From: Nostoc sp. DedSLP01
GTDB lineage: Bacteria > Cyanobacteriota > Cyanobacteriia > Cyanobacteriales > Nostocaceae
Direction: 5' to 3'
DNA length: 64,000 nt
NCBI GenBank assembly: GCA_034530875.2
Contig: JAVRCJ020000023.1
Location: 66,778-130,777 of the forward strand
Below are positions 13,315 through 26,755 of the stretch, one piece after another. The notes beneath the pieces are model-generated. The model was not told the DNA's origin. It was given only the letters and a program-made list of their open reading frames with translations, and did no database searches. Position numbers and translations under genes: made by a program. The first letter of the stretch is position 1; every line of letters begins with the position of its first letter.

Positions 13315-14499
13315 TTATCGATCTACCGATCCCATCACCACATCAATACTTCCTAGAATGACGAAAATATCTGCTACTTTTTGACCCCGGATTAATTGAG
13401 GTAAAACTTGTAAATTATTGAAATCGGCCGGGCGAATTTTCCAACGCCAAGGGAAAATGCGATCGTCTCCAATAATATAGATTCCTAATTCTCCTCTACC
13501 TGACTCAATACGCACATAGTTTTCACCCTCAGGAATTTTAAATGTGGGCGAAACTTTTTTGGCAATGAACTGGTAATCAAATCCGTTCCACTCAGATTTA
13601 GCACCTGCTGACAGGCGTTTAGCTTCTAAATTTTCATAAGCACCACCAGGTAATCCCTTCAGTGCTTGCTGAATAATTTTGACTGACTCGCGCATCTCTC
13701 CAGTTCTGACAACGTACCTAGCAAAACAATCTCCTGCTGTATCCCACTGCACTTGCCAGTCAAAATCGTCGTAGCATTCGTAACGGTCAACTTTTCGTAA
13801 ATCCCACTTCACGCCAGAAGCGCGTAACATCGGCCCGGAAACTCCCCAGTTAATTGCTTCTTCGCGACTTAAAACTCCTATACCCTCTACTCGACGGCGA
13901 AAAATTGGGTTATTAGTAATCAGTTTTTCATACTCATCAATCTTGGGGACAAAGTAATTACAAAAGTCTTCGCATTTATCCACCCAGCCGTAAGGTAGAT
14001 CAGCAGCAACTCCACCGATACGAAAATAATTATTGTTGACCATGCGGTAGCCTGTGGCAGCTTCAAACAAGTCGAGAATCATTTCGCGATCGCGCAAAGT
14101 GTAAAATATCGGAGTTTGTGCGCCAGTATCTCCCACAAAAGGCCCCAACCACAGTAAATGGTTGACAATGCGAGCTAACTCCAACATGATTACCCGAATG
14201 TAGCTAGCACGTTTGGGGATGGTGACGTTTGCCAATTTTTCCACAGCATTCACCGTCACGGCTTCATTAAACATCCCGCCATAGTAGTCCCATCGGCTCA
14301 CATAAGGGACATACATCACATTGGTACGGTTTTCGGCAATTTTTTCCATACCCCGGTGTAGGTAGCCGATGACAGGTTCGCAATCAACCACATCTTCACC
14401 ATCCAAGGTGACAAGAATCCGAAAGCACCCATGCATCGAAGGGTGATGCGGGCCAAAGTTGATTGTCATTGGCTCGGTTCTGATTTGAATTCTGACCAT
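13315..14499 (-). CDS. ndhH: NAD(P)H-quinone oxidoreductase (NDH-1) subunit H, divergent copy
   Basis: 394 aa, [35 protein letters not shown]-terminal DVVMGSVDR. Confidence 0.93.
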
Positions 14500-14619
14500 A
14501 ATTAAGTTTCCCTAATCCGCAATAATTATAGATTAGAGCTTCTTAATTCCTTTGGCTTTGCTTTGTTTGTTTCGCTCTTCCTGCCGCTAGCTGCGCCTTT
14601 GTTGGAGACTGACGTTAAG

Positions 14620-17600
14620 TTAAAGCAACTGTTGCATCATCAGTTGTGCAAATAGCCCTGGTTGATTTGTTAGTTCGGCGAAACTGCCTTGCTGCACTAC
14701 TTTGCCACCTGCGAGGACGTAAATGCGATCGGCGTTTTGAATGGTACTGAGGCGATGGGCGATCGCAACTCTAGTCACCTTTAGCTTTTGTAAGCTTTCA
14801 CTGACAATTGCCTGAGTTCTATTATCTAAAGCGCTAGTAGCTTCATCAAATAGCAAAATTCTGGGTTTCAATACCAATGCCCTAGCAATCAACAACCGCT
14901 GTCGTTGTCCGCCGGACAGATTACTACCTCCCTCGCTGACGATTGTATGCATCTGCATCGGCATCGCGGCAATGTCATCCGCCAAACCCGCCATCTGAGC
15001 TGCTTCCCAAGCTTCGTCCATTGTCACCAAGGCACCACTGGCAATATTTTCAAAAATTGAAGCTGACATTAAGCGACTATTTTGCAATACTACGCCTAAT
15101 TGACGGCGCACAGCATGGACATCCAAAGAAGCTAAGTCTTGCCCATCGTAGTAAATTGTGCCAGATTTCGGGAATTCAAACCCTAAAAGTAACCTTAATA
15201 AAGTTGATTTACCGCTGCCAGAAGGGCCGACAATGGCAATAAATTCTCCTGGTTGGGCGTGAATGCTGACATTATCCAGCGTCAAGGGGCCATCGTCACG
15301 ATAGCGGAAAGTTACCCGATCTACAACTAATTTGCCCGATAACCTACCCGGATCTGTCTGAGCAGAACTAATTTCTGGTTCAGCTTGTAAAATTGGTTGG
15401 GCGCGTTGCCACAAGGGTAAGACTTGCAAAACTTCCACAACTGTGCTGCTGAGGCTAGTGGCTCCGTTAATGAAAGTACCAAAAGCAACATTGAATGCTA
15501 AAAAAGTGCCAGTGGATAAACCACCTCCTCCAGGAGTTTGTTGGGACTGCACAATTAAGCTAGTAGCAAACCAGAACAGGGCAGCAGTGGTGATTGCAGG
15601 TAATATTTGATTGATTACTACCACGCTATCTTCAATGCCTTGGGTACTCAGCATGAGTTTCAGTTGATGCGTATACTGTTTACCCCAGTAGGCAAAGGCA
15701 CGGGCTTCAGCTTTGGCAACTCGGAGTTTGGCAACTCCATTAATTAACTGCACCATGACGCCAAAGATTTGTCCTTGTAGTTCTAGTAATGGGCGAACTT
15801 TACGCACAATCAGAACGCCAGAGATGATGGTAACGGCAATATTTACCAGTGCTACTACACAAGCTATGAGAGCTAAGGAGACATTGTAGTAAAATAACAA
15901 TCCTAGATTCAGCAAGGAGAACAAACTGGAAAAGATTGTTTTTAAAACTGTGTTACCCAGCTTATGGCGAATTTGACTAATAGCTGTGACTCTAGAATCC
16001 AAGTCTCCAACTGAGAAAGAGCGAAAAAAGGAAGCCTTCAAGTTTAACAATCGATCCCAAACTGCCCCTTGGGTAGAGGAATCGGCAAAAGTTTCCAACC
16101 TAATGGTGGCAAATCCAAGGGCGAGTTGAAATAGCGTTCCGCCAAAGGCAGCAGCCACCAAAGCAACAGCAATTTGGCTCAACAACCCTCGATTCGCATC
16201 TGGGATAGCTTTGTCGATGAGAATAGCTGTAGCTTGAGGTGTCAGCATTCCTAACAGGCTGATGGTAATTCCCATTACTAAAACTAAAATTAGTTCTTTG
16301 TAATGTCCTTGGAGGGCAAACTGGAGTAAATCAAAAGTTCTCAGCTTTTTATCGGGTAAAGGTCGATAGAATGCGTAGGCAGTCTTAACTAGGGCTACTG
16401 CTATGTTGGCATCGACAGGGATAGGCGTTTTTTCACCGGGAACGTAGAGTTGGTAACGCGTGTCAGACACTGGTAATAGTGCCACTGGCAGTTTATCGGC
16501 AAGTGTAAATGCTAACATTGCGCCGCAATCTTTTTGCCACCAGTTGTCCCGCAACTGAACTCGTCGCACGCGGATACGCGAAGCCCTGGCGATCGCTTCT
16601 ACAGGATCTTGTACTCTTGATAAATCTTCTGAGGCAGCTGGCGGACAAATCTTAATTCCTAATGCTCGTCCCACAGCACCAGCAGCCATTAGTAAGCCTT
16701 GGTCTGGATCGGTTGCATCAAGACTACTACTAAATCCTATATTATTTAGCTTGTTTGACTTTGGCTGTGGCAAGACAGATGCTAATTCTGCTAACGTCTC
16801 TTGCATCACTTGGTTCTCAAGACGTTCCCTAGCTTGAAATCTGAGCAATTCTGCATCCATTTCCTGCTGTTGCAGTAGATTAACGCACTGGAGGAAGTAG
16901 GTTTGTAGTTGCGACAAACCATCTAACAAAGAATTGATATCTTTGATGTCTGCGGTGTTAATACTTTGCAATTCTACAATGTTATTTGCTTGCAACCACA
17001 TATTTGCAGCTAAAGGCAACATTCCACAGGCAGGAGTGAACGGCAGATCGTCAAATCCCATCCATCTAGCACGTCCTTGGAGAATTTGCACCCACGATAT
17101 TTGCTGCGGCTGGAAGATTTGACCTGCGGCTAAGGATAAGTGGCCGATTTCTGGCAGCGATGTTGGTGTTGTTGGCGTAGTAATACCAGCAAGTACCGAA
17201 CCAAATTGAGAAATCCAGCGTTCTATCAGAGTTAATACTTCTTGATTAGCGTCAGCAAACAACTGGTTAAAGTCAGTTCTCGATATTTTGAGAATTTCTG
17301 TCTCCTCTAGGGATACTGCCAAAATCTCTTGCTGCTTGCCGATGTTACTTGGTGCGATCGCAAACATCGCCTGTCCTGGTGTGCTGCTAAATAAATAGCG
17401 ACGGGTACCTTCGGGAACGCCATCATTAACTGCGATCGCAAATAGCGCCAAGTAACCAGATTTCACTAACCAAATTGACTCCGGATCGTCTAGCACTAGC
17501 GATTCATTGCATTGAAAACGATAGTGTTGTCCTTTAAGGTTTGAGAAGGATAAGAGGGATGAGGGGGATGAGGAAGACAAGGAAGACAAGGGGGACAAGG

Positions 17601-19980
17601 AAGATAAGTCTTCACTTCTGTCTTCTGCCTCCTGCCTCCTGCCTTCTGCCTCCTGCCTCCTGCCTCCTGCCTCCTCCCCTGCTTCCTCACTGCGAATTAG
17701 TTGTAAGTACGGCCCTTCAACTTGCCGCAATTGTTGGTGACTTCCTCGTTGAACTATCTTGCCGCGATGGAGGACAATAATTTCATCACAATCTCGGATA
17801 GTCGAGAGTCGATGCGCCACGATGATGCAAGTGCAACCGCGCAACCGCAGATTACGATTGACGTTCTTTTCTGTTTCGGCATCGAGAGCGCTGGTAGCTT
17901 CATCCATAATCAGGATACTGGGATTATTCACCAAAGCCCGCGCGATTTCTAAACGTTGCCTTTGACCGCCACTCAAATTAGTAGCACCTTCTAAAAGGTC
18001 AGCATGATAGCCTCCAGGCAGTGAAAGGATGACATCGTGAAGCGCTGCGTCTTGACAGGCTCGGACGAGATGAGTGTCAGGTATGGTAGTATCCCAAAGC
18101 GTTAAGTTGTCTCTGACACTGCCAGCAAATAACAAAATCTCTTGCTCTACAACAGAAATAGAATTGGCTAGTACCTGGCGATAAATTTGCTCTCTGGGTT
18201 TGCCGTCGAATAAAATTTCTCCCTGCCAAGGTTCGTAAAGCCCACATAAAAGTTTGGCAACAGTAGACTTACCAGAACCACTTCCACCCACCAAAGCAAC
18301 TCGCTGCCCTGGCTTGAGCGTAAGATTAAAATTTTCAATCAACGGCGGGGCTATTTGACTATAGCCAAATGTCACATTGCGTAATTCAACATAACCCTGG
18401 AGTTTGGGCAGAGGATAGGCGGATGAGGAAGTGAGGGAGTGAGGGAGAATAATTACTGATTCCTGACTTCCAACTTCTGCCTCCTGCCTTCTGCCTCCTG
18501 CCTTCTGCCTCCTGCCTTCTGCCTCCTGCAACTGCCGGTCAATGGGGTTACGCAAGACATCATCGAGGCGATTTAGATTACCTTCCATTTCTTGGAGTTC
18601 GCTTCCCAGGCTGATGAGATTATTTACTGGAGCGAAAAATCTTTGCATCATGCCGAGAAAGGCTATTAACATGCCGATGCTCAAGGCTCCATCCATGACT
18701 CGCAAACCGCCTACAGCTAAAAGTAGCATGGAAGCGATCGCTGACAGAAAAGATGGTAAAACACCTATTGTCTGGTTTGTTTCTTCTAATTCTTGCTGGG
18801 TATTGATGGCTTTGGCATAGTGACCCCCCCACCGGGAGAAGAAATCTGACTCTAAGCCAGATGCTTTTAGTGTCTCCATACTCTGAAGACCAGAAATTTC
18901 TACGCCGCGAACTTTTCCCTGTTCTTGGATGAGTTTGATATTGGCATCTACCCGCCGCCCTCTTACCCACTGCAAGGCGGCAAGGTTGATAATGACAAAG
19001 GCGATCGCAATTAAAGTTAGTACAACATCATATTGCAACATCACTATTACATATAGAAATATTGATGCTGCGGCAATTACTGTAGTTGCTAACTCACCCG
19101 AAAGCATGTCGGCGATGCTGTCGTTGAGTTGCATTCGGCTACTGATTTCCCCAGCATAACGCTGATCGTAAAAACTAACGGGTAGGCGTAAAATGTGCCA
19201 CAGATAGCGACTCTTCATGCCCACGGACAACTTAATTTTCATTTGACGCAAAAACTGCAACTGTAGCAGCGTCAAAAATCCACTGAGTCCGGCTGTGAAG
19301 ATAATGCCTAAAATTAGCGGACGCAACCACTCATAACGACGCTCAATTAATACGTTGTCTACAAATACCTGGGAAAATGCAGGTATTGCCAGCCCAGGAA
19401 TGACTAACAAAAATCCTGCCAGCACGCAGTAAAGTAATGCCCCAAGAGAACCTCGCAACCGCGACCACAAAGCTAAGATTGTGCTGGGCTTGCGTCCTCC
19501 GGGTTGAAACTCTGGACTAGGCTCTAGGACTAGCACTACACCAGTGTAAGCACCGCTGAATTCTTCTAAGGAGACGGTGCGCCGTCCAGTCGCAGGATCG
19601 TTAAGATAAACTCGCTGTTTATCGAATCCCTCTACTACTAAGAAATGGTTAAAGTTCCAAAATACAATATAGGGAGATTTTAACTGTAATAAACCAGTTA
19701 AGTTGGTTTTAAAGCTTTTAGCGGTAAGTCGATAATTTCTCGCAGCCTTCAAGATATTTAAGGCACTAACTCCATCCCGCGAGACACCGCACGCTTGTCT
19801 CAATTCCGTCAGTGGGACAATGCGATTGTAATAACCCAGAATAATTCCCAAAGCGGCAGCACCGCATTCTACTACCTCCATTTGCAGCAGAGTCGGAGTA
19901 TGACATCGCTTGTTTTTAAGCGTCGGCTTTGCCCACCGCAAGCATCGCTCTAATATATTTTGCAAATTTCGCCAGAACAT
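14620..19980 (-). CDS. Fused NHLM/NHLP-type bacteriocin export ABC transporter (C39 peptidase-permease-ATPase joined to the second permease-ATPase subunit)
   Basis: C39 triad QMEVVECG / WNFNHF / NDPA; two TM domains; two NBDs (GGSGSGKST, GPSGSGKST, LSGGQRQR twice); low-complexity linker between the halves. Confidence 0.9.
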   Translation of the reverse strand: MFWRNLQNILERCLRWAKPTLKNKRCHTPTLLQMEVVECGAAALGIILGYYNRIVPLTELRQACGVSRDGVSALNILKAARNYRLTAKSFKTNLTGLLQLKSPYIVFWNFNHFLVVEGFDKQRVYLNDPATGRRTVSLEEFSGAYTGVVLVLEPSPEFQPGGRKPSTILALWSRLRGSLGALLYCVLAGFLLVIPGLAIPAFSQVFVDNVLIERRYEWLRPLILGIIFTAGLSGFLTLLQLQFLRQMKIKLSVGMKSRYLWHILRLPVSFYDQRYAGEISSRMQLNDSIADMLSGELATTVIAAASIFLYVIVMLQYDVVLTLIAIAFVIINLAALQWVRGRRVDANIKLIQEQGKVRGVEISGLQSMETLKASGLESDFFSRWGGHYAKAINTQQELEETNQTIGVLPSFLSAIASMLLLAVGGLRVMDGALSIGMLIAFLGMMQRFFAPVNNLISLGSELQEMEGNLNRLDDVLRNPIDRQLQEAEGRRQKAGGRRQEAEVGSQESVIILPHSLTSSSAYPLPKLQGYVELRNVTFGYSQIAPPLIENFNLTLKPGQRVALVGGSGSGKSTVAKLLCGLYEPWQGEILFDGKPREQIYRQVLANSISVVEQEILLFAGSVRDNLTLWDTTIPDTHLVRACQDAALHDVILSLPGGYHADLLEGATNLSGGQRQRLEIARALVNNPSILIMDEATSALDAETEKNVNRNLRLRGCTCIIVAHRLSTIRDCDEIIVLHRGKIVQRGSHQQLRQVEGPYLQLIRSEEAGEEAGGRRQEAEGRRQEAEDRSEDLSSLSPLSSLSSSSPSSLLSFSNLKGQHYRFQCNESLVLDDPESIWLVKSGYLALFAIAVNDGVPEGTRRYLFSSTPGQAMFAIAPSNIGKQQEILAVSLEETEILKISRTDFNQLFADANQEVLTLIERWISQFGSVLAGITTPTTPTSLPEIGHLSLAAGQIFQPQQISWVQILQGRARWMGFDDLPFTPACGMLPLAANMWLQANNIVELQSINTADIKDINSLLDGLSQLQTYFLQCVNLLQQQEMDAELLRFQARERLENQVMQETLAELASVLPQPKSNKLNNIGFSSSLDATDPDQGLLMAAGAVGRALGIKICPPAASEDLSRVQDPVEAIARASRIRVRRVQLRDNWWQKDCGAMLAFTLADKLPVALLPVSDTRYQLYVPGEKTPIPVDANIAVALVKTAYAFYRPLPDKKLRTFDLLQFALQGHYKELILVLVMGITISLLGMLTPQATAILIDKAIPDANRGLLSQIAVALVAAAFGGTLFQLALGFATIRLETFADSSTQGAVWDRLLNLKASFFRSFSVGDLDSRVTAISQIRHKLGNTVLKTIFSSLFSLLNLGLLFYYNVSLALIACVVALVNIAVTIISGVLIVRKVRPLLELQGQIFGVMVQLINGVAKLRVAKAEARAFAYWGKQYTHQLKLMLSTQGIEDSVVVINQILPAITTAALFWFATSLIVQSQQTPGGGGLSTGTFLAFNVAFGTFINGATSLSSTVVEVLQVLPLWQRAQPILQAEPEISSAQTDPGRLSGKLVVDRVTFRYRDDGPLTLDNVSIHAQPGEFIAIVGPSGSGKSTLLRLLLGFEFPKSGTIYYDGQDLASLDVHAVRRQLGVVLQNSRLMSASIFENIASGALVTMDEAWEAAQMAGLADDIAAMPMQMHTIVSEGGSNLSGGQRQRLLIARALVLKPRILLFDEATSALDNRTQAIVSESLQKLKVTRVAIAHRLSTIQNADRIYVLAGGKVVQQGSFAELTNQPGLFAQLMMQQLL

Positions 19981-20012
19981 AAAAATATTTTTTAAATAAG
20001 GAGTCAGTTGTC

Positions 20013-20155
20013 AGGAGGCAGGAGGCAGAAGGCAGAAGGCAGAAGGCAGGAGGCAGAAGTTAAGACTTATCTTCCTTGTCCCCTGCCTCCGCTGCCTCTC
20101 CTGCCTCCCCTGCTTCCCCTGCTCCCCCTGCCTCCCCTACCCCCTGCTCTCTCAT
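20013..20155. repeat. Composite repeat (GGCAGAA/GGCAGGA heptamers + AAGACTTATCTTCCTTGTCCCC core + C-rich nonamers)
   Basis: Visible directly; an inverted copy lies inside the ABC gene at about 17550-17690. Confidence 0.85.
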
Positions 20156-20163
20156 CTCCAGTA

Positions 20164-21606
20164 TCAAGAAACACCGCTCCAGGATCTCAGAATTGGTAGA
20201 ACAAAGGTAATCGGGGCGCGTTCTTCCACGGTGACTTGTACGGAGGTGGTAGTTCCAGAAGTGACCTTCATCTGTGGCCCTTGGGAAGAAGACCATTTGT
20301 ACTCGCTGAAGGTGGAATTGTCTGGTTGCAGTCGTGCAGTAATTAGCATCTGTGGTCCTTGTGACATAATGGCTTCTACAAATTCAGAATTGCCGACTAC
20401 ACTTAATGCACCTTCTTTAGTCACGGGAAAGGCTGAGACTTCTGTGACGGCACCGATGATGCCACCAAAGCGTTCGCGTTGGACTGTAGTAGGCGTGACT
20501 TGTAACTTCATCCCCGGTTGAATTTGCTTACCATCGCCAACGGGAAAAAATGCCACACTGACAGGTTGAGCAGATCGCTGTTGTGCAGCGATCGTTCCTA
20601 TGGGTGTACCCTGTAAAACAATCTGCCCTGGTGTGGCGGAAATTTCTAAAACTCGTCCGGAGTAATTGCTTTTGACTAAGCTGCTACTCGATAGTTGCAG
20701 TGCTAATTGAGCAATATTCCGCTGAGCTTCCTGAATTTCTTTTCTGCGATTAGTTACGGCATCTAAGTCTTGTTGTGCCGCAGCAGCTTGTTTGCTATCT
20801 AGTTGTTTTAACTGCGCTTGCAAATCTTTAATTGCGTTCAAGTTCTCTAGGTATTGGCGTTGAGCATCTGCTTCTTTGACATCCAGTTGCTTGAGTTGGG
20901 ATTCGGCTTCATTGATTTGTGTCACGGCATTTAAGTAGTCTTGCTGTGACTGTAGGACTGAATCGCCAGAAATTGCTCCCTCTTGCAATAGTTTATTGCG
21001 GTTGTCCCATCTTTGTTTGAAGGTAGGCAACAGTTGTCGTAGTGCTTGTAAGCTTTGAGTTTGGTTGGCGCGATCGCGAGCAATCGAGTCTAGCCCTTTT
21101 TCTCTTAAAATCGGTGTTAGCTTCTGTACTGCCTGGAGATTTTGCAGCAAAGATTGGCGTTGCTGTTTAATGGCTTCTTTGTCTGCGTTTTGCCGTTGTA
21201 GTTGCACTAAGTTAGCAGCGCGATCTTGTGCTTGTAGTTGTTGTAATTTAGAGCGTACTAGTTGTAGCTGTTTCAACAGTTCGCTTTGGTCTAGCGTCGC
21301 CAGCACATCTCCTCTATTTACATAGTCACCAACTCGGACGTTGATTGTTCGCAATTTACCTGCGATCGGTGACTGAAACAAGGTAACTGTACTGGGATAA
21401 ACTATTATCCCAGTACCCGTTACTGTAATTGGAATTCGACCTAAAAAACTCCAAGTCAGCCCCGTCGCCACCAAAGAACCAACAGCGACTAGAGGTAGCC
21501 ACTTTTTCGGGCTGACTACCTGCATGATTTGATCTAGTTCTTCAGGTGAAGAAGCACGCTCTAAAGCTTCTTTGCGGAACAGGTCGCTCTTTTGCCTAAC
21601 CACCAA
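20164..21606 (-). CDS. NHLM/NHLP bacteriocin system secretion protein (HlyD-family membrane fusion protein)
   Basis: LFRKEALERASSPEELDQIMQVV N-terminus, single TM, biotinyl-like hairpin, coiled coil, RERFGGI...YKWSSSQGP...PITFVLP C-terminus. Start is TTG 21606 or GTG 21603. Confidence 0.92.
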   Translation of the reverse strand: MVVRQKSDLFRKEALERASSPEELDQIMQVVSPKKWLPLVAVGSLVATGLTWSFLGRIPITVTGTGIIVYPSTVTLFQSPIAGKLRTINVRVGDYVNRGDVLATLDQSELLKQLQLVRSKLQQLQAQDRAANLVQLQRQNADKEAIKQQRQSLLQNLQAVQKLTPILREKGLDSIARDRANQTQSLQALRQLLPTFKQRWDNRNKLLQEGAISGDSVLQSQQDYLNAVTQINEAESQLKQLDVKEADAQRQYLENLNAIKDLQAQLKQLDSKQAAAAQQDLDAVTNRRKEIQEAQRNIAQLALQLSSSSLVKSNYSGRVLEISATPGQIVLQGTPIGTIAAQQRSAQPVSVAFFPVGDGKQIQPGMKLQVTPTTVQRERFGGIIGAVTEVSAFPVTKEGALSVVGNSEFVEAIMSQGPQMLITARLQPDNSTFSEYKWSSSQGPQMKVTSGTTTSVQVTVEERAPITFVLPILRSWSGVS

Positions 21607-22473
21607 ACACCGTCCCCATTTCTATGGGAATAAAAACATAAAATACCTTTGAGTGAATACAATACTGTTGCTGCGATCGCTAGGAGTTGCAGTCTAAATG
21701 GAAAATAGGCAATACAATTGTTTGCTTATTTGACAGTATTAATATTCACAGATAGAAATTATTTTAATCATATCATTTGATGAAAAAACGAGAAATTTAT
21801 AAATTAATTTTTTTAATTATTTGATTTTTTATAGACATGAATTAAAGTTCTGAGTCAAGACCTCTTTCCTCAGAACTTTAAGACAAATCAAAATTTTTAC
21901 AGCATTTATAAAATAGTCTAATGATTTAGGAAAAATACTTTTCCACTTAAATAATCAATCCTTTACACCCTATATCGAATAGAGTTGACATAACTTAGAG
22001 TCAGTCTAATTATAAACTAAACCTAGCTAATGAATTTGGTTAATGTGAATTTCGCCATATTGATGACAATACTAACTTTTAAAACCAAAGTCAATACTAA
22101 ATTTAAAGCCTAAAACTCTTTAAAAATAAACACATATAGCTGATGTCTAAAAGTAAGAAAAGTAGGAAAAGTAAGAAAAGTAAGAATTCCTAATTATCAC
22201 TAAGGTATGCAACAAATTCCACAGCACTTATCAGATTTGTGTTTGAGTGATGCGATCGCACCACTTAATCGAGTCTCTAGCACTCATACTTGATTTGATG
22301 AAAAAAACTCAGTACACTTTTATTACTTTTTACTTGTTAAGAGTTCCCTATGTCTACAACTAGTTCTCCGAATTAAACCGGATTTCTATAGCCCTTTATC
22401 TTTTAAAATCGGTGTCAGCTTCTGTACTGCCTAGAAGTTCTAAGTAGGTCAGTGTGAATATTTATCGTTACAC

Positions 22474-22648
22474 CTAGTGGCGTGGCAAGCTTTAAATGTT
22501 GCAAAGAAATTATAGGTTGGGGAAACCCCAAATTGAGCAAGTAGCATTTGACGTAAGAAAACTCAACGCTACGCTAATATATTTGTTGGATTTCACGTTG
22601 CTCAGCCCAACTTTCTAATGCATTATTCTAGTCTTGTCGCGCCACTAG
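22474..22648. mobile_element. Putative MITE enclosing a REP-like hairpin
   Basis: Terminal inverted repeats CTAGTGGCGTGGCAAG / CTTGTCGCGCCACTAG (14 of 16 match), with CTAG at both ends. Confidence 0.6.
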
Positions 22649-22798
22649 TAGAAAAAAAAGTTTACAAAACTCGTAAAAAGTCACTTAACCGCCAGCGTTG
22701 CTTTCCATAGCAATTCGGAATCATTCGTGAGAAAAGATCATTATTTTACAAGTATTCAAGCCTGGATTAATTCTCACGTATCATTTAGGACTACTATA

Positions 22799-23053
22799 TT
22801 ATTTGTCCTTTGTTGAGATATCAACCACAATTTTATTGTCAATCTTTACGTTTATGACAATACTATCGCAAGGTAGTTGTCCTAATGGGGAATTTGGTTG
22901 GGCTGGTGGGGCTGATGGGACTGGTGGTTCCCATTTTATTGGTAGCCACTTTAATGGTTGCCAACCATTTCCTCCAACGAGGGTAAACGTTTTTTCTTCA
23001 TCTAACTCTGTAATAACTGCAACCTCTTCTCGTTCAAAAGTGATGTTGGACAT
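22799..23053 (-). CDS. Double-glycine leader precursor peptide 1 (84 aa)
   Basis: 28-aa leader ending ELDEEKTFTLVGG, GGAAGGA RBS, adjacent to the C39 exporter. Confidence 0.72.
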   Translation of the reverse strand: MSNITFEREEVAVITELDEEKTFTLVGGNGWQPLKWLPIKWEPPVPSAPPAQPNSPLGQLPCDSIVINVKIDNKIVVDISTKDK

Positions 23054-23568
23054 AACAAATCCTTCCGTCTACAAAATGACTCTGGTCTGGTGAAATTCTT
23101 TTAGTCACTTAACCAAAAATTACAGTAAGTTCCGTTAATATAACTATTCTGTAATCTTTATAAGAAAATATTGACGGGTAGGTAAGAAGTAAGAGATAAT
23201 AATTACTGGTCGCTTACCTTTGACCTTTAATCGTTATCCAGCTTACACCCGCCAATATTCACGTAATATTGTCGTGAGTTGTGATGCCAGAAATAGTCAG
23301 ACCACTATGTTATAAGATGTCACTACACTTATTCGTAAAGGTCGTCTCTAGTCCTTTGTCAGTTGTTGGTAGCAATTGGCAAAGGACTACTGGTTTATAA
23401 GGGTCTTAACGAAATAACGTGTAAGTTTCATACTTATTAGCTTAGTGTTGTCGTGATTTGTAGCGATAATACAAATCATGATAAAGAAATTTTTGGCAAT
23501 ACAAACAAACGGTTAAAGTGACTTTTGTTGAGGTGATAACTCAATTCAGAGCGTACTAGACAGACACA

Positions 23569-23853
23569 TTACCAACCAATGTACGCGCGGTCTCTACTGC
23601 TATCAGAGTAGTTTGAAGCATAAGCATTTCCACCAACTGCTACTGCGGTAGATGTTTGATTGGTTACATTAATGTCATTTTTGCCGCCTTTGACACTTCC
23701 GATCTTAACGTCATTGTCGTTTTTGACATCGATATCTATTTTTTTGGCATAAAAAGAGTAGTCTGCGCCACCACCTACAACTCCACTGATTTCTTCATCA
23801 GCTAACTCTGTCATTACTACGAGGGTTTCTTTCTCAAGTGTTACAACTGACAT
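23569..23853 (-). CDS. Double-glycine leader precursor peptide 2 (94 aa)
   Basis: 28-aa leader ending ELADEEISGVVGG, AAGGA RBS; leader and 5' region homologous to precursor 1. Confidence 0.82.
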   Translation of the reverse strand: MSVVTLEKETLVVMTELADEEISGVVGGGADYSFYAKKIDIDVKNDNDVKIGSVKGGKNDINVTNQTSTAVAVGGNAYASNYSDSSRDRAYIGW

Positions 23854-24808
23854 AAGATTATTTCCTTCTACAAAATGATATTTGCATAGTGCAATTCTTT
23901 CTTTGACTTAACCAACAACTGTAGATAACAAAAGAACTTTTATACTTGAAAAATAGTATTTACTGTTTTTTTGTTAATATCTTTAGATATTCTTAAATGA
24001 ATATATCTAAAGATGAATTTTGTTGGTTGCATCGTTGAATTCACTATATTTATAGAATACAACTATTTAAAAAAAACTATATAAAGAAATGATGAAGTTA
24101 ATAACAAATTTTTTTAAAGATTAATTTTTTTAAGCGATTAAAATTCGATAAAATTTAGTATAAAAAAGTAAGAAAAGTAAAAAGTAAAAGTAAGAAAAGT
24201 ATGAATATTTAAAATAATATTTCCATCATTTAAATATCAAGAATATTGTAAACAGCAAATATAAAAATATTTTTTAATAAATTAAATATATATATTAAAG
24301 TATATTTAATAAATTTAAAATATTTAATAGCATTTACTAATAAATAATTGCTGCAATGCTTATTCAACAGGGATTACAAAAAAATAAAATAATAAATATT
24401 ATCGGAATTAAATAGAATTGCTATGTAAAAACATATAGCTAATATCAAAATTTAAAATTATATTTTTAAATAGTAATTCTCTCAAGTTTTAAAAGCCATT
24501 TACAGTAGTATGTCTATTGTTTTTCATAAAAATGATAGCTCTAAATTATTTATAAATAATAAGATTTTCAACCGATACGTATCAGTCGAAAATCTTAGTA
24601 TTATCTAGTTTAAAAACTTATATTTTACATACTATTTAGTTAAAAAATACTGCAAATTATAGTTAGAAAAATAAAATTTACTACTAGAGAAATAGACTTC
24701 ACGTGACTTATACTCAAACTCACTCGAAGTAGTACTAACGCCAAAGTCGGAACGTAAAAATTAAAACAAAATGTGCGATTAATCGTGTCTAGTACTTAAT
24801 GAGTTATT

Positions 24809-25031
24809 GGAGGATGTTTGCAAAGTATCAGACGAATATAATCCGTCACTACACAAGCGTAGACACGTTAGCAGGTTATTGATTCCTCGAAAAGGGTTTT
24901 CACAGGATGGAGTACGCTAACAAAAAAGCAAAGTTTTTAAACGGTACAAACAGGTTTGGTTTACGTGTAAAATGAACCGCAATTTATATTCGCCAAAACT
25001 AATGATAAATTAGATTTCACAAACATCCTCC
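24809..25031. mobile_element. Putative MITE
   Basis: Perfect 12-bp terminal inverted repeat GGAGGATGTTTG / CAAACATCCTCC; related ends at about 29369-29526. Confidence 0.65.
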
Positions 25032-25097
25032 TTAATCGCACTTCTACAACCTACCCACACCTACATATCCTTATCTGCTTGCTTTAGCTGTATGTAG

Positions 25098-25385
25098 CTA
25101 GGAAGCCTGAACAACTCCATTCACAAACTTCAAGATATTTGTTGTTGCCTCTGTTACTCCATTCACAGTTTTATTTGTCTTTGTTGTGACTGTTCTTTGA
25201 TTTCCAGTCTGTTTGTCTTCAATGGATTGCTCAATGATAATTTGAGTTGCATTGTCTACATTTGAAGCTGAATAAGATATTGTTTCACCACCAACTATTC
25301 CTTTCAATTCGCCATCTCTTAGCTCCTCGATAATAACTTTTTGTTTATGGTTAGATTTGAAGCTAACTCGATTGATATTAGCCAT
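25098..25385 (-). CDS. Double-glycine leader precursor peptide 3 (95 aa)
   Basis: ATG at 25385 after GGAGG; 33-aa leader ending EELRDGELKGIVGG; T/N/V-rich core. Confidence 0.8.
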   Translation of the reverse strand: MANINRVSFKSNHKQKVIIEELRDGELKGIVGGETISYSASNVDNATQIIIEQSIEDKQTGNQRTVTTKTNKTVNGVTEATTNILKFVNGVVQAS

Positions 25386-25430
25386 AATTTCCTCCAAAAA
25401 TGTGTACACAATTTGCGTTTTACATGTCTT

Positions 25431-25475
25431 TACAAATAACAGTTTTTTTAATAGCTTGTCAACAGTTAATACAAA
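25431..25475 (-). promoter_or_regulatory. Putative promoter of precursor 3 (TTGACA -35), duplicated upstream of precursor 4 at 26311-26353
   Basis: Both read TTTTGTAT-n-AACT-n-TTGACAAGCTATTAA..AAACTGTTATTT on the - strand; the -10 match is weak. Confidence 0.6.
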
Positions 25476-26064
25476 ATATCGTACCTTTCAAACTTAACTT
25501 ACTTTTCCTAAATTTATTGTTTCCATTTTTATTTTTTTTAAATAATTGGTATTCACCAATTATAAACAAACAATATTTTTATACTTAAAAAACTTAAATA
25601 CTTTGTGTTTTACCATTATTTAATATTAGCAAAAACTATATAATTGTTTGTTAGCTACTTGCAGAGCTACTGCTAATATGAGCAAAACTACAAATTTTAA
25701 TTGGGATATTGAACCTCTTAGGTTTCAAATCTTTAATTTCAATTTAAACTTTATACTTATAGCACCGATAAAAGTCAGAAGTCAGAATATTCCGACCTCT
25801 GACTAATGTATTAAACAGATAATGAGGAATGCATAACTGGCGTTATACAAGGGATTGAGCGATAACTAAGACGAAATTATAGCAATTTTTTGGTTCAATC
25901 AACTTTTATAAAAATACTAGTTTATCGAGGCTAATATTTTTATATTGGTTGGTTTACTGCTTAATTTTCAAGAATTATCTTGAATTGCTTTATGATGTTA
26001 GTTAGCTCAATCCACCTTATATTTTATAAATTACGCTTTGCTTGTGGATTAGGCAAATCAATTA

Positions 26065-26259
26065 CTATTGAATAGACCCAATACCTGTTAATAATTCATC
26101 GAGAGCATCGGTAGCTCTTACAAGAAAAGTACCCAATCCTCTACCTAGCAAGCCTAATATCCCTATTCCTCCGACTACTGCTTCTAATTCTTCCTCATTA
26201 ATTTCTTCCACAATAACTTCTTGATTGATGGATTGTGCCAAGTTTTCATCGTTAACCAT
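26065..26259 (-). CDS. Double-glycine leader precursor peptide 4 (64 aa), class II bacteriocin-like amphipathic core
   Basis: ATG at 26259 after GGAG; leader ends EEINEEELEAVVGG; core IGILGLLGRGLGTFLVRATDALDELLTGIGSIQ. Confidence 0.82.
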   Translation of the reverse strand: MVNDENLAQSINQEVIVEEINEEELEAVVGGIGILGLLGRGLGTFLVRATDALDELLTGIGSIQ

Positions 26260-26755
26260 GATTTTCTCCAAAAAATTTGTTGTTAGGTGTTTATACCCTT
26301 GATGTAATTAGAAATAACAGTTTGATTAATAGCTTGTCAATAGTTTATACAAAACAACTTACTTTTATGGCTTAACCCACTTTTATTGCTTTTCCTATTT
26401 TTTAGAATCTCACTTTTATTACTTTTATTAATAACATTTTCGCGATTTCCAAAAGTTAAAAAACTTTTAAATATCCTACTTTAGTAGGATGTCTTATACC
26501 AAATTTTGCTTATCTGGTTGATATGCTTGGAGTTTTTCTATGAGACGGTAAATCCATAGATAAGCTTTGTAGAAGTTACTTGCATAGTCCATATAAAAAG
26601 AAATATAGCTTATATCAAAAGGCTGATTTATGAAGTTTAATCATCAATTCATATCATTTCCTTTAATAAGGATATAAATACGTTAATAGGCGCACAGCTA
26701 GCTGTGCACCCTTACCAAATGTTGATATTTAACTGAGTTTGCGTGAGTTTATATC

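Follow-up and report, generated by a model that had tools for sequence, protein, structure and literature searches.

A 64,000-nucleotide (nt) stretch of the genome of Nostoc sp. DedSLP01 (positions 66,778 to 130,777 of contig JAVRCJ020000023.1), here called the window, harbors an export cassette in which four small genes, termed p1 to p4, encode precursors with short double-glycine (GG) leaders and accompany the genes for an HlyD adaptor and a fused ATP-binding cassette (ABC) transporter with a C39 peptidase domain. Judged by its sequence, the cassette is a real and conserved cluster of group VII in the classification of Wang, Fewer and Sivonen (2011, PMC3140520), with four cargo families that have not yet been named. 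With a probability of roughly one half, it exports small unmodified proteins which, once outside, would self-assemble to give fibres or a surface or matrix layer, in analogy to EbfG1-4 and their exporter PteB in Synechococcus elongatus PCC 7942. This self-assembly reading is based on core composition, copy number, a related tandem family, a parallel among chaplins and the EbfG precedent, and the sequences point to fibres or a surface coat as more likely than antibiotics. An earlier note, made from the letters of the window alone, had assigned no function to the system; the cores suggest beta-rich self-assembling proteins.

All seven open reading frames (ORFs) listed in that note, namely p1 to p4, the adaptor, the transporter and a neighbouring ndhH, were confirmed and lie co-oriented on the minus strand, with gaps of 0.5-1.2 kb between the small genes. 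The p4 gene (26065..26259) encodes a 31-amino-acid (aa) leader and a hydrophobic, Gly/Leu-rich core of 33 aa with an amphipathic helix pattern, while p3 (25098..25385) joins a 33-aa leader to a Ser/Thr-rich core of 62 aa with a predicted beta-meander. In p2 (23569..23853), a 28-aa leader precedes a core of 66 aa, which is rich in Asn, Gln, Gly and Val and displays the alternating pattern of beta-strands, and in p1 (22799..23053) a p2-type leader of 28 aa is followed by a 56-aa core in which a Pro-rich linker is joined to an alternating beta segment at the C terminus. The computed masses of the unmodified p1 to p4 cores are about 6183, 7067, 6672 and 3354 Da. Direct reading shows that all four leaders follow the pattern E(L/I)x8VGG, and the leader range of 28-33 aa, the core range of 33-66 aa and the single Cys among the four window cores, situated in p1, agree with the earlier description. 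Apart from a marginal match of p4 to the bacteriocin-leader model TIGR01847 (16.5 bits at a cut-off of 15.7), which p1 to p3 do not pass, p1-p4 belong to no Pfam or NCBIfam family, and neither the NHLP (TIGR03793) nor the Nif11 (PF07862) leader model is matched by any of them. The four peptides had been taken for dissimilar; instead, p1 and p2 form one related pair and p3 and p4 another, as the p1/p2 leaders are 46% identical over 28 aa and the upstream DNA is alike in both pairs (p1/p2, 75% over 57 nt; p3/p4, 80% over 83 nt). When 72,988 small ORFs from the own genome were searched with a hidden Markov model of the leaders, strong matches were limited to p1-p4, which is circular, and a chaplin with a GG leader came next.

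Comparison of gene neighbourhoods, which the earlier note had proposed, revealed the cassette to be conserved at 23 loci in 21 other genomes and to occur in about 3% of a 300-genome sample of the family (counts of 23 loci exclude L067, a repeat of another locus, which counts of 24 or 22 loci include). A scan with p2 detected 18 loci in 17 genomes of Nostoc, Calothrix and Aulosira, the same 18 being returned by a repeat scan with an alignment; a p3 profile gave 10 matches in 300 family genomes, including a weak one interrupted by stops, and contributed four genomes from a further genus (loci L062-L066), and a p2 profile found three matches besides the own genome in 400 genomes of the order. Over the 23 loci, p2 occurs at 23 (18 by construction), p3 at 22, p4 at 16 and p1 at 7. 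Relatives carry one to four tandem copies of p2, with two to four at 16 of the 23 loci. Two loci depart from the gene order p4-p3-p2-(p1)-HlyD-ABC by a duplicated p3-p2 block and the others keep it; the flanking genes vary between lineages. The cassette is carried by a small group of soil-type cyanobacteria, and a literature search, with most subscription journals outside its reach, found no account of it.

In line with the earlier note, the small ORFs are not chance frames, because p2 has relatives in 18 loci and the ratio of nonsynonymous to synonymous change (dN/dS; pooled, Nei-Gojobori) of the leaders is 0.29-0.48, which indicates that the leaders are under purifying selection. The pooled cores yield 1.09-1.32, and among closer pairs the values are 0.24-0.57 for leaders and 0.42-1.78 for cores. 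Given that the pairs lack independence and that core values are raised by misalignment, core change is best read as relaxed or diversifying under compositional constraint.

The adaptor gene (20164..21606, start codon uncertain) lies 183 nt upstream of the transporter gene (14620..19980), and its NHLP-type product scores 394 bits on TIGR03794 at a cut-off of 156. The transporter comprises 1786 aa in a single frame, in which a C39-peptidase ABC half (TIGR03796, 1450 bits) is fused to a peptidase-less one (TIGR03797, 1363 bits). Motif inspection located the C39 triad as Cys39/His112/Asp128 and found Walker A, LSGGQ, DEATS and H-loop motifs complete in both ATPase halves, so that the adaptor and the double transporter with an intact triad stand as first described; the fused frame is open in 22 of the 22 loci reaching it. 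A CAP_ED domain was not among the best 25 matches listed, no scan having been aimed at the second ABC half alone. TolC-type channels are encoded elsewhere in the genome. Of the 11 cassette rows in a tree of 17 C39-ABC halves, 10 cluster, separate from chaplin-linked and YcaO-linked rows, with a support (89/89) that is not firm and an outgroup on a very long branch. Tandem repeats of 7 and 9 nt occur in frame within the transporter gene, in the linker and before the first ATPase (17575-17678, 18420-18537), and further repeats lie between hlyD and the transporter gene (19999-20141).

The system had been put forward as undescribed, which holds for its cargo and fails for its transporter. As far as the accessible parts of the papers cited here and below reach, group VII combines HlyD with one protein fusing a short C39-ABC to a peptidase-less ABC, derives from group V and requires no maturase (PMC3140520), and the cassette possesses both this fusion and an adjacent HlyD. 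The seven precursors assigned to group VII in Table S3, one Nif11-type and six Trichodesmium neighbours, are not the conserved four-family set found here, a comparison made by table without sequences. Another study, in its accessible text, found no group VII cluster in Subsection V (PMC4558948). The three-gene cassette TIGR03794/03796/03797, in turn, was tied to NHLP/Nif11 leaders (Haft 2010, PMC2887384). All three transporter models are above their cut-offs here, but the leaders are short (28-33 aa) and of neither type, no cyclodehydratase or LanM lies alongside and the ABC genes are fused.

The absence of a modifying enzyme in or beside the cassette, likewise claimed before, was borne out: 105 flanking ORFs of at least 200 aa (107 listed, less two overlapping hlyD) contained no match to YcaO, LanC, radical SAM or P450 proteins. 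The only possible tailoring neighbours are a PGM1-like ATP-grasp gene, which 2 of 23 loci carry about 5 kb upstream, and, at a single locus, an Asn-synthase-like gene. Elsewhere, the own genome encodes two YcaO and one LanM-type protein; one YcaO gene shares the contig of the cassette at a distance of about 57 kb and is accompanied by a transporter and Nif11-type precursors of its own, and Nif11 matches lie elsewhere in the genome. Contig C23 harbors, at 14.9-29.9 kb (L001, L002), a distinct NHLP cluster in which unfused transporters occur with Nif11-type precursors, YcaO and a dehydrogenase-like gene. Moreover, Cys is missing from all 76 p2-p4 cores (37 p2, 23 p3, 16 p4), which leaves neither lanthionine nor thiazole to be formed, and five of eight p1 cores are Cys-free as well.

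The self-assembly reading draws on the composition and predicted structure of the cores. The p1-p3 cores (6.2-7.1 kDa) are polar and weakly charged or near neutral, with a grand average of hydropathy (GRAVY) of -0.2 to -0.6, and the 37 p2 cores contain only 0.8% Pro and 0.4% Leu alongside 16% Asn+Gln. Period-2 hydropathy amounts to 0.16 in p2, compared with -0.02 +/- 0.02 in shuffles, and to 0.23 in p1. For p3, AlphaFold2 predicts an all-beta protein of the meander type with strands at 47-60, 63-74, 77-88 and 91-93 and a confidence score (pLDDT) of 82-86 over residues 51-90. Foldseek matched this model to nothing at an E of 0.001 or better, and the best VIA-align Z, 5.7, falls short of the 7-8 that unrelated models typically reach; beta-pore-forming proteins make up several of the top VIA-align rows, read here as a common arrangement only. 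AlphaFold2 of p2 alone was uninformative (pLDDT 45.8), and the p2 profile retrieved one chance row among PDB sequences. The polar p1-p3 cores, the alternation in p2 and p1 and the predicted all-beta p3, together with an EbfG-like size and layout and the absence of a conserved ORF for immunity from the intergenic blocks examined, support a role in the matrix.

Further support comes from a tandem GG family beginning MIISDL, which the p2 model picked up beside HetP/SurA-type (group II) exporters (L032:8343-11512 and L033:9525-10116; P0061-P0108, 48 database matches). Its profile has matches in 18 of 301 genomes of the phylum, many of them weak or leader-only, and hits p2 alone in the own genome (E 0.008). 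Core-only profiles of p2 and this family align with an hhalign probability of 90%, or of 86% (E 5e-6, 0 of 40 column shuffles) with 20 distant members gathered by the family's own profile. The motif N-x-A-x-hydrophobic-x-Q (also N-x-A-x-V-x-Q), present in 35 of 45 members, is one which we take to resemble a curli half-repeat, with no Curlin Pfam match behind it. The p2 and p3 cores also match each other weakly (E 0.0015, 0 of 60 shuffles).

The chaplin parallel involves known amyloids (PMC7582709). On contig C17 (12340-12609, minus strand; L100:9341-9610), the own genome encodes a GG-type leader followed by a chaplin domain (PF03777, E 3e-25); the start of this gene and the membrane gene after it look truncated, and it carries the upstream element of p3 and p4 described below. 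Intact GG-leader chaplins occur in 4 of 250 family genomes (L101, L102, L104, L105). In three of these the chaplin gene is part of a sister exporter locus, flanked by an NHLP-type HlyD and a C39 ABC transporter and together with a MauE-like membrane gene. Chaplins went unmentioned in the cyanobacterial literature among the matches listed. Near one chaplin exporter, four tandem GG precursors with Asn/Gly/Val-rich cores were observed (L106:2899-4531), as was a two-repeat precursor adjoining a possible ATP-grasp gene (L106:6549-6809).

Export of several unmodified GG proteins by one C39 exporter, which the earlier note had regarded as new, has precedents in EbfG1-4/PteB and in arrays of cyanobacterial tandem bacteriocins (CTB) on an NHLP-type transporter. 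EbfG1-4 are precursors of 91-102 aa (9-10 kDa) with cores of 6-7 kDa, encoded by four genes before the C39 exporter PteB (PMC4997328); EbfG1-3 form amyloid, while EbfG4 is found at the surface and in the matrix (PMC9981879). The cassette shares with them several GG precursors of like size, a C39 exporter, the lack of a maturase and cores without known domains. The likeness is one of size and layout; the EbfG hotspot motif is absent from the cassette, and no EbfE-type peptidase is found among its flanking ORFs. The ebfG genes are listed as group III (PMC3140520), and a 2025 study, in its accessible text, reports no EbfG homologue in Anabaena by BLAST (PMC12267927). CTB proteins resemble the cargo in their tandem, Cys-free cores of about 60 aa behind short GG leaders; one CTB array is served by an unfused NHLP-type transporter 73% identical to that of the cassette, and among the named clusters of the ESM Atlas CTB comes closest (0.88), which is a lead only. 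CTB genes are induced by phosphate lack (PMC9846622). Nevertheless, CTB cores are acidic and do not match the core profiles of the cassette, and neither p1-p4 nor any other protein of the own genome matches the CTB model NF038167 (cut-off 32 bits), on which two distant p2 relatives score 17.3 and 15.8 bits. Membership of p1-p4 in the CTB family was rejected on the profile and model results, and the CT pilus of Microcystis was set aside, the accessible source offering no C39 or leader link.

In the scheme we favour, the four genes would first be translated as GG precursors, for which conserved frames and selected leaders are observed and expression is predicted. The C39 domain, with its intact motifs, would then cut after GG as is known for its family, and the fused ABC halves would export the cores together with HlyD and a TolC-type channel encoded elsewhere. 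Without a conserved maturase and without Cys, the cores would probably escape enzymatic tailoring. Finally, in the least certain step, p2, amplified up to fourfold and with a structured RNA element behind it, might constitute the bulk beta-strand subunit, p3 and p1 might be minor beta-type partners and p4 a hydrophobic anchor or membrane-active peptide.

That RNA element, missed by the earlier note, spans about 430 nt (23124..23560) directly behind the last p2 copy. It is 75-93% identical between loci with non-triplet indels, folds with a z of -4.0 and shows two-sided change in 8 of 82 pairs as against 2.5 in shuffles (0 of 500), a test favoured by deriving the structure from the same alignment. 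Of 300 family genomes, the 9 with a strong p3 match are also those in which it occurs, one 62-nt match aside, and it has no Rfam or plasmid match. The consensus folds better on the plus strand (-64 versus -48 kcal/mol; 14 versus 8 two-sided pairs), and the element may thus be an antisense RNA. Two other intergenic blocks, 25700-26000 and 23800-24100, are conserved in 13-17 of 24 loci as mapped. A conserved ORF for immunity was seen neither in the alignment of the element nor in these other blocks, which were mapped only. Upstream of p4, a 26-nt element with a TTGACA-like core (26321..26346, minus strand) recurs before p3 (25443..25468, minus strand); with up to six mismatches it precedes 15 of 16 p4 and 16 of 23 p3 genes, 83-87 nt from their starts, and the own genome has three sites at up to four mismatches. 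A sigma-70 scan was not clearly above chance (47 versus 35.6 +/- 6.0).

Several results weigh against self-assembly. The cores evolve fast (pooled dN/dS 1.1-1.3), as an arms race would give, p3 is devoid of period-2 alternation (-0.03) and p4 resembles a class II bacteriocin helix. Neither Curlin, searched up to E 1, nor another amyloid Pfam family was matched by 29 p2 members and 30 further proteins; the EbfG hotspot A[FIV]N[IV][GS] is present in 0 of 84 p1-p4 cores and a strict curli-like motif in 0 of 37 p2 cores, of which 28 have a looser version defined post hoc, all of these motifs having been picked after the sequences were seen. In addition, the MIISDL family was first chosen with the p2 model, kin are not independent, just one conserved intergenic block was aligned in full, and PteB is a single ABC protein of group III, while the cassette has a fused NHLP-type transporter of group VII.

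The main rival, though rather unlikely, is a multi-peptide unmodified class II bacteriocin or microcin, possibly dual-purpose, in which p4 and perhaps p3 would attack competitor membranes and the others would serve as partners or a storage form. GG leaders on a C39 exporter are the classic route of such peptides (PMC3140520), and the hydrophobic p4 family (GRAVY 1.1) has a helix moment of 1.62 compared with 1.31 when shuffled. Fast-changing cores behind conserved leaders and a patchy spread, with p3 in 10 of 300 family genomes, also fit, and a double role, killing and the formation of biofilm amyloid, has been reported for microcins of Acinetobacter (PMC13188072) and for microcin E492 (PMC7582709). 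However, the p1-p3 cores are polar and weakly charged, the net charge of p4 is neutral to acidic and 7 of the 23 loci have lost or lack p4 while keeping p2 and p3, the p3 model has no significant fold match, and the conserved intergenic blocks revealed no immunity ORF, of which a hidden one is conceivable (PMC13188072).

Secreted signals for development or community behaviour, as in hormogonia, heterocysts or plant contact, are an improbable alternative for a dedicated peptidase exporter. The C39 exporter HetC is reported to drive differentiation in Nostoc, p3 and p4 have their upstream element in common and each of the four genus g152 genomes has an AraC regulator gene upstream of the cassette. 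Yet no sensor or receptor gene is conserved among the flanking ORFs of at least 200 aa, the cassette is absent from most relatives searched, and near-identical tandem copies of 60-aa beta-rich cores fit bulk output better. Ordinary precursors of peptides made on the ribosome and modified after translation (RiPPs), tailored in trans by the YcaO or LanM proteins encoded elsewhere, are very improbable: stand-alone LanM has been described with group V clusters (PMC3140520), p3 cores comprise 27% Ser+Thr and a few loci have the ATP-grasp or Asn-synthase-like neighbours, but the near YcaO has partners of its own, the leaders are of neither the Nif11 nor the NHLP type and the p2-p4 cores lack Cys.

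Downstream of the transporter, the ndhH gene (13315..14499) had been counted as part of the system, from which it is now rejected: it occurs at 0 of 24 related loci, and of the 22 loci that reach the fused transporter (L067 included) 21 extend at least 800 nt downstream. It is a second, divergent copy, 81% identical to that on contig C17, with copies of 96% identity in two other genomes (G892, G894). A divergent ndhK follows the same transporter type in L027 (18841-19755), possibly by chance. On the minus strand between p1 and hlyD lies a 47-nt leftover of hlyD (22389..22435), 91% identical to 21091-21137, and a similar leftover is carried by L016.

Hundreds of GG precursors in cyanobacterial genomes carry the label 'bacteriocin', and for almost none of them has a function been shown, EbfG being the one biofilm example found. 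The cassette offers synthesizable candidates of 33-66 aa, in culturable Nostoc and Calothrix such as the carriers Nostoc minutum NIES-26 and Calothrix sp. NIES-2100, for the protein scaffold of Nostocales biofilms, crusts and plant-contact surfaces, and makes the question of weapon or building material directly testable. Tentatively, it may represent a multi-subunit functional-amyloid system of heterocystous cyanobacteria that uses a peptidase exporter of the bacteriocin type, in which p2 would be a major subunit family recurring with exporters of unrelated classes and a structured RNA would be dedicated to setting its output. If so, many maturase-free cyanobacterial 'bacteriocin' clusters, including the exporters of GG-leader chaplins, would be matrix builders rather than weapons.

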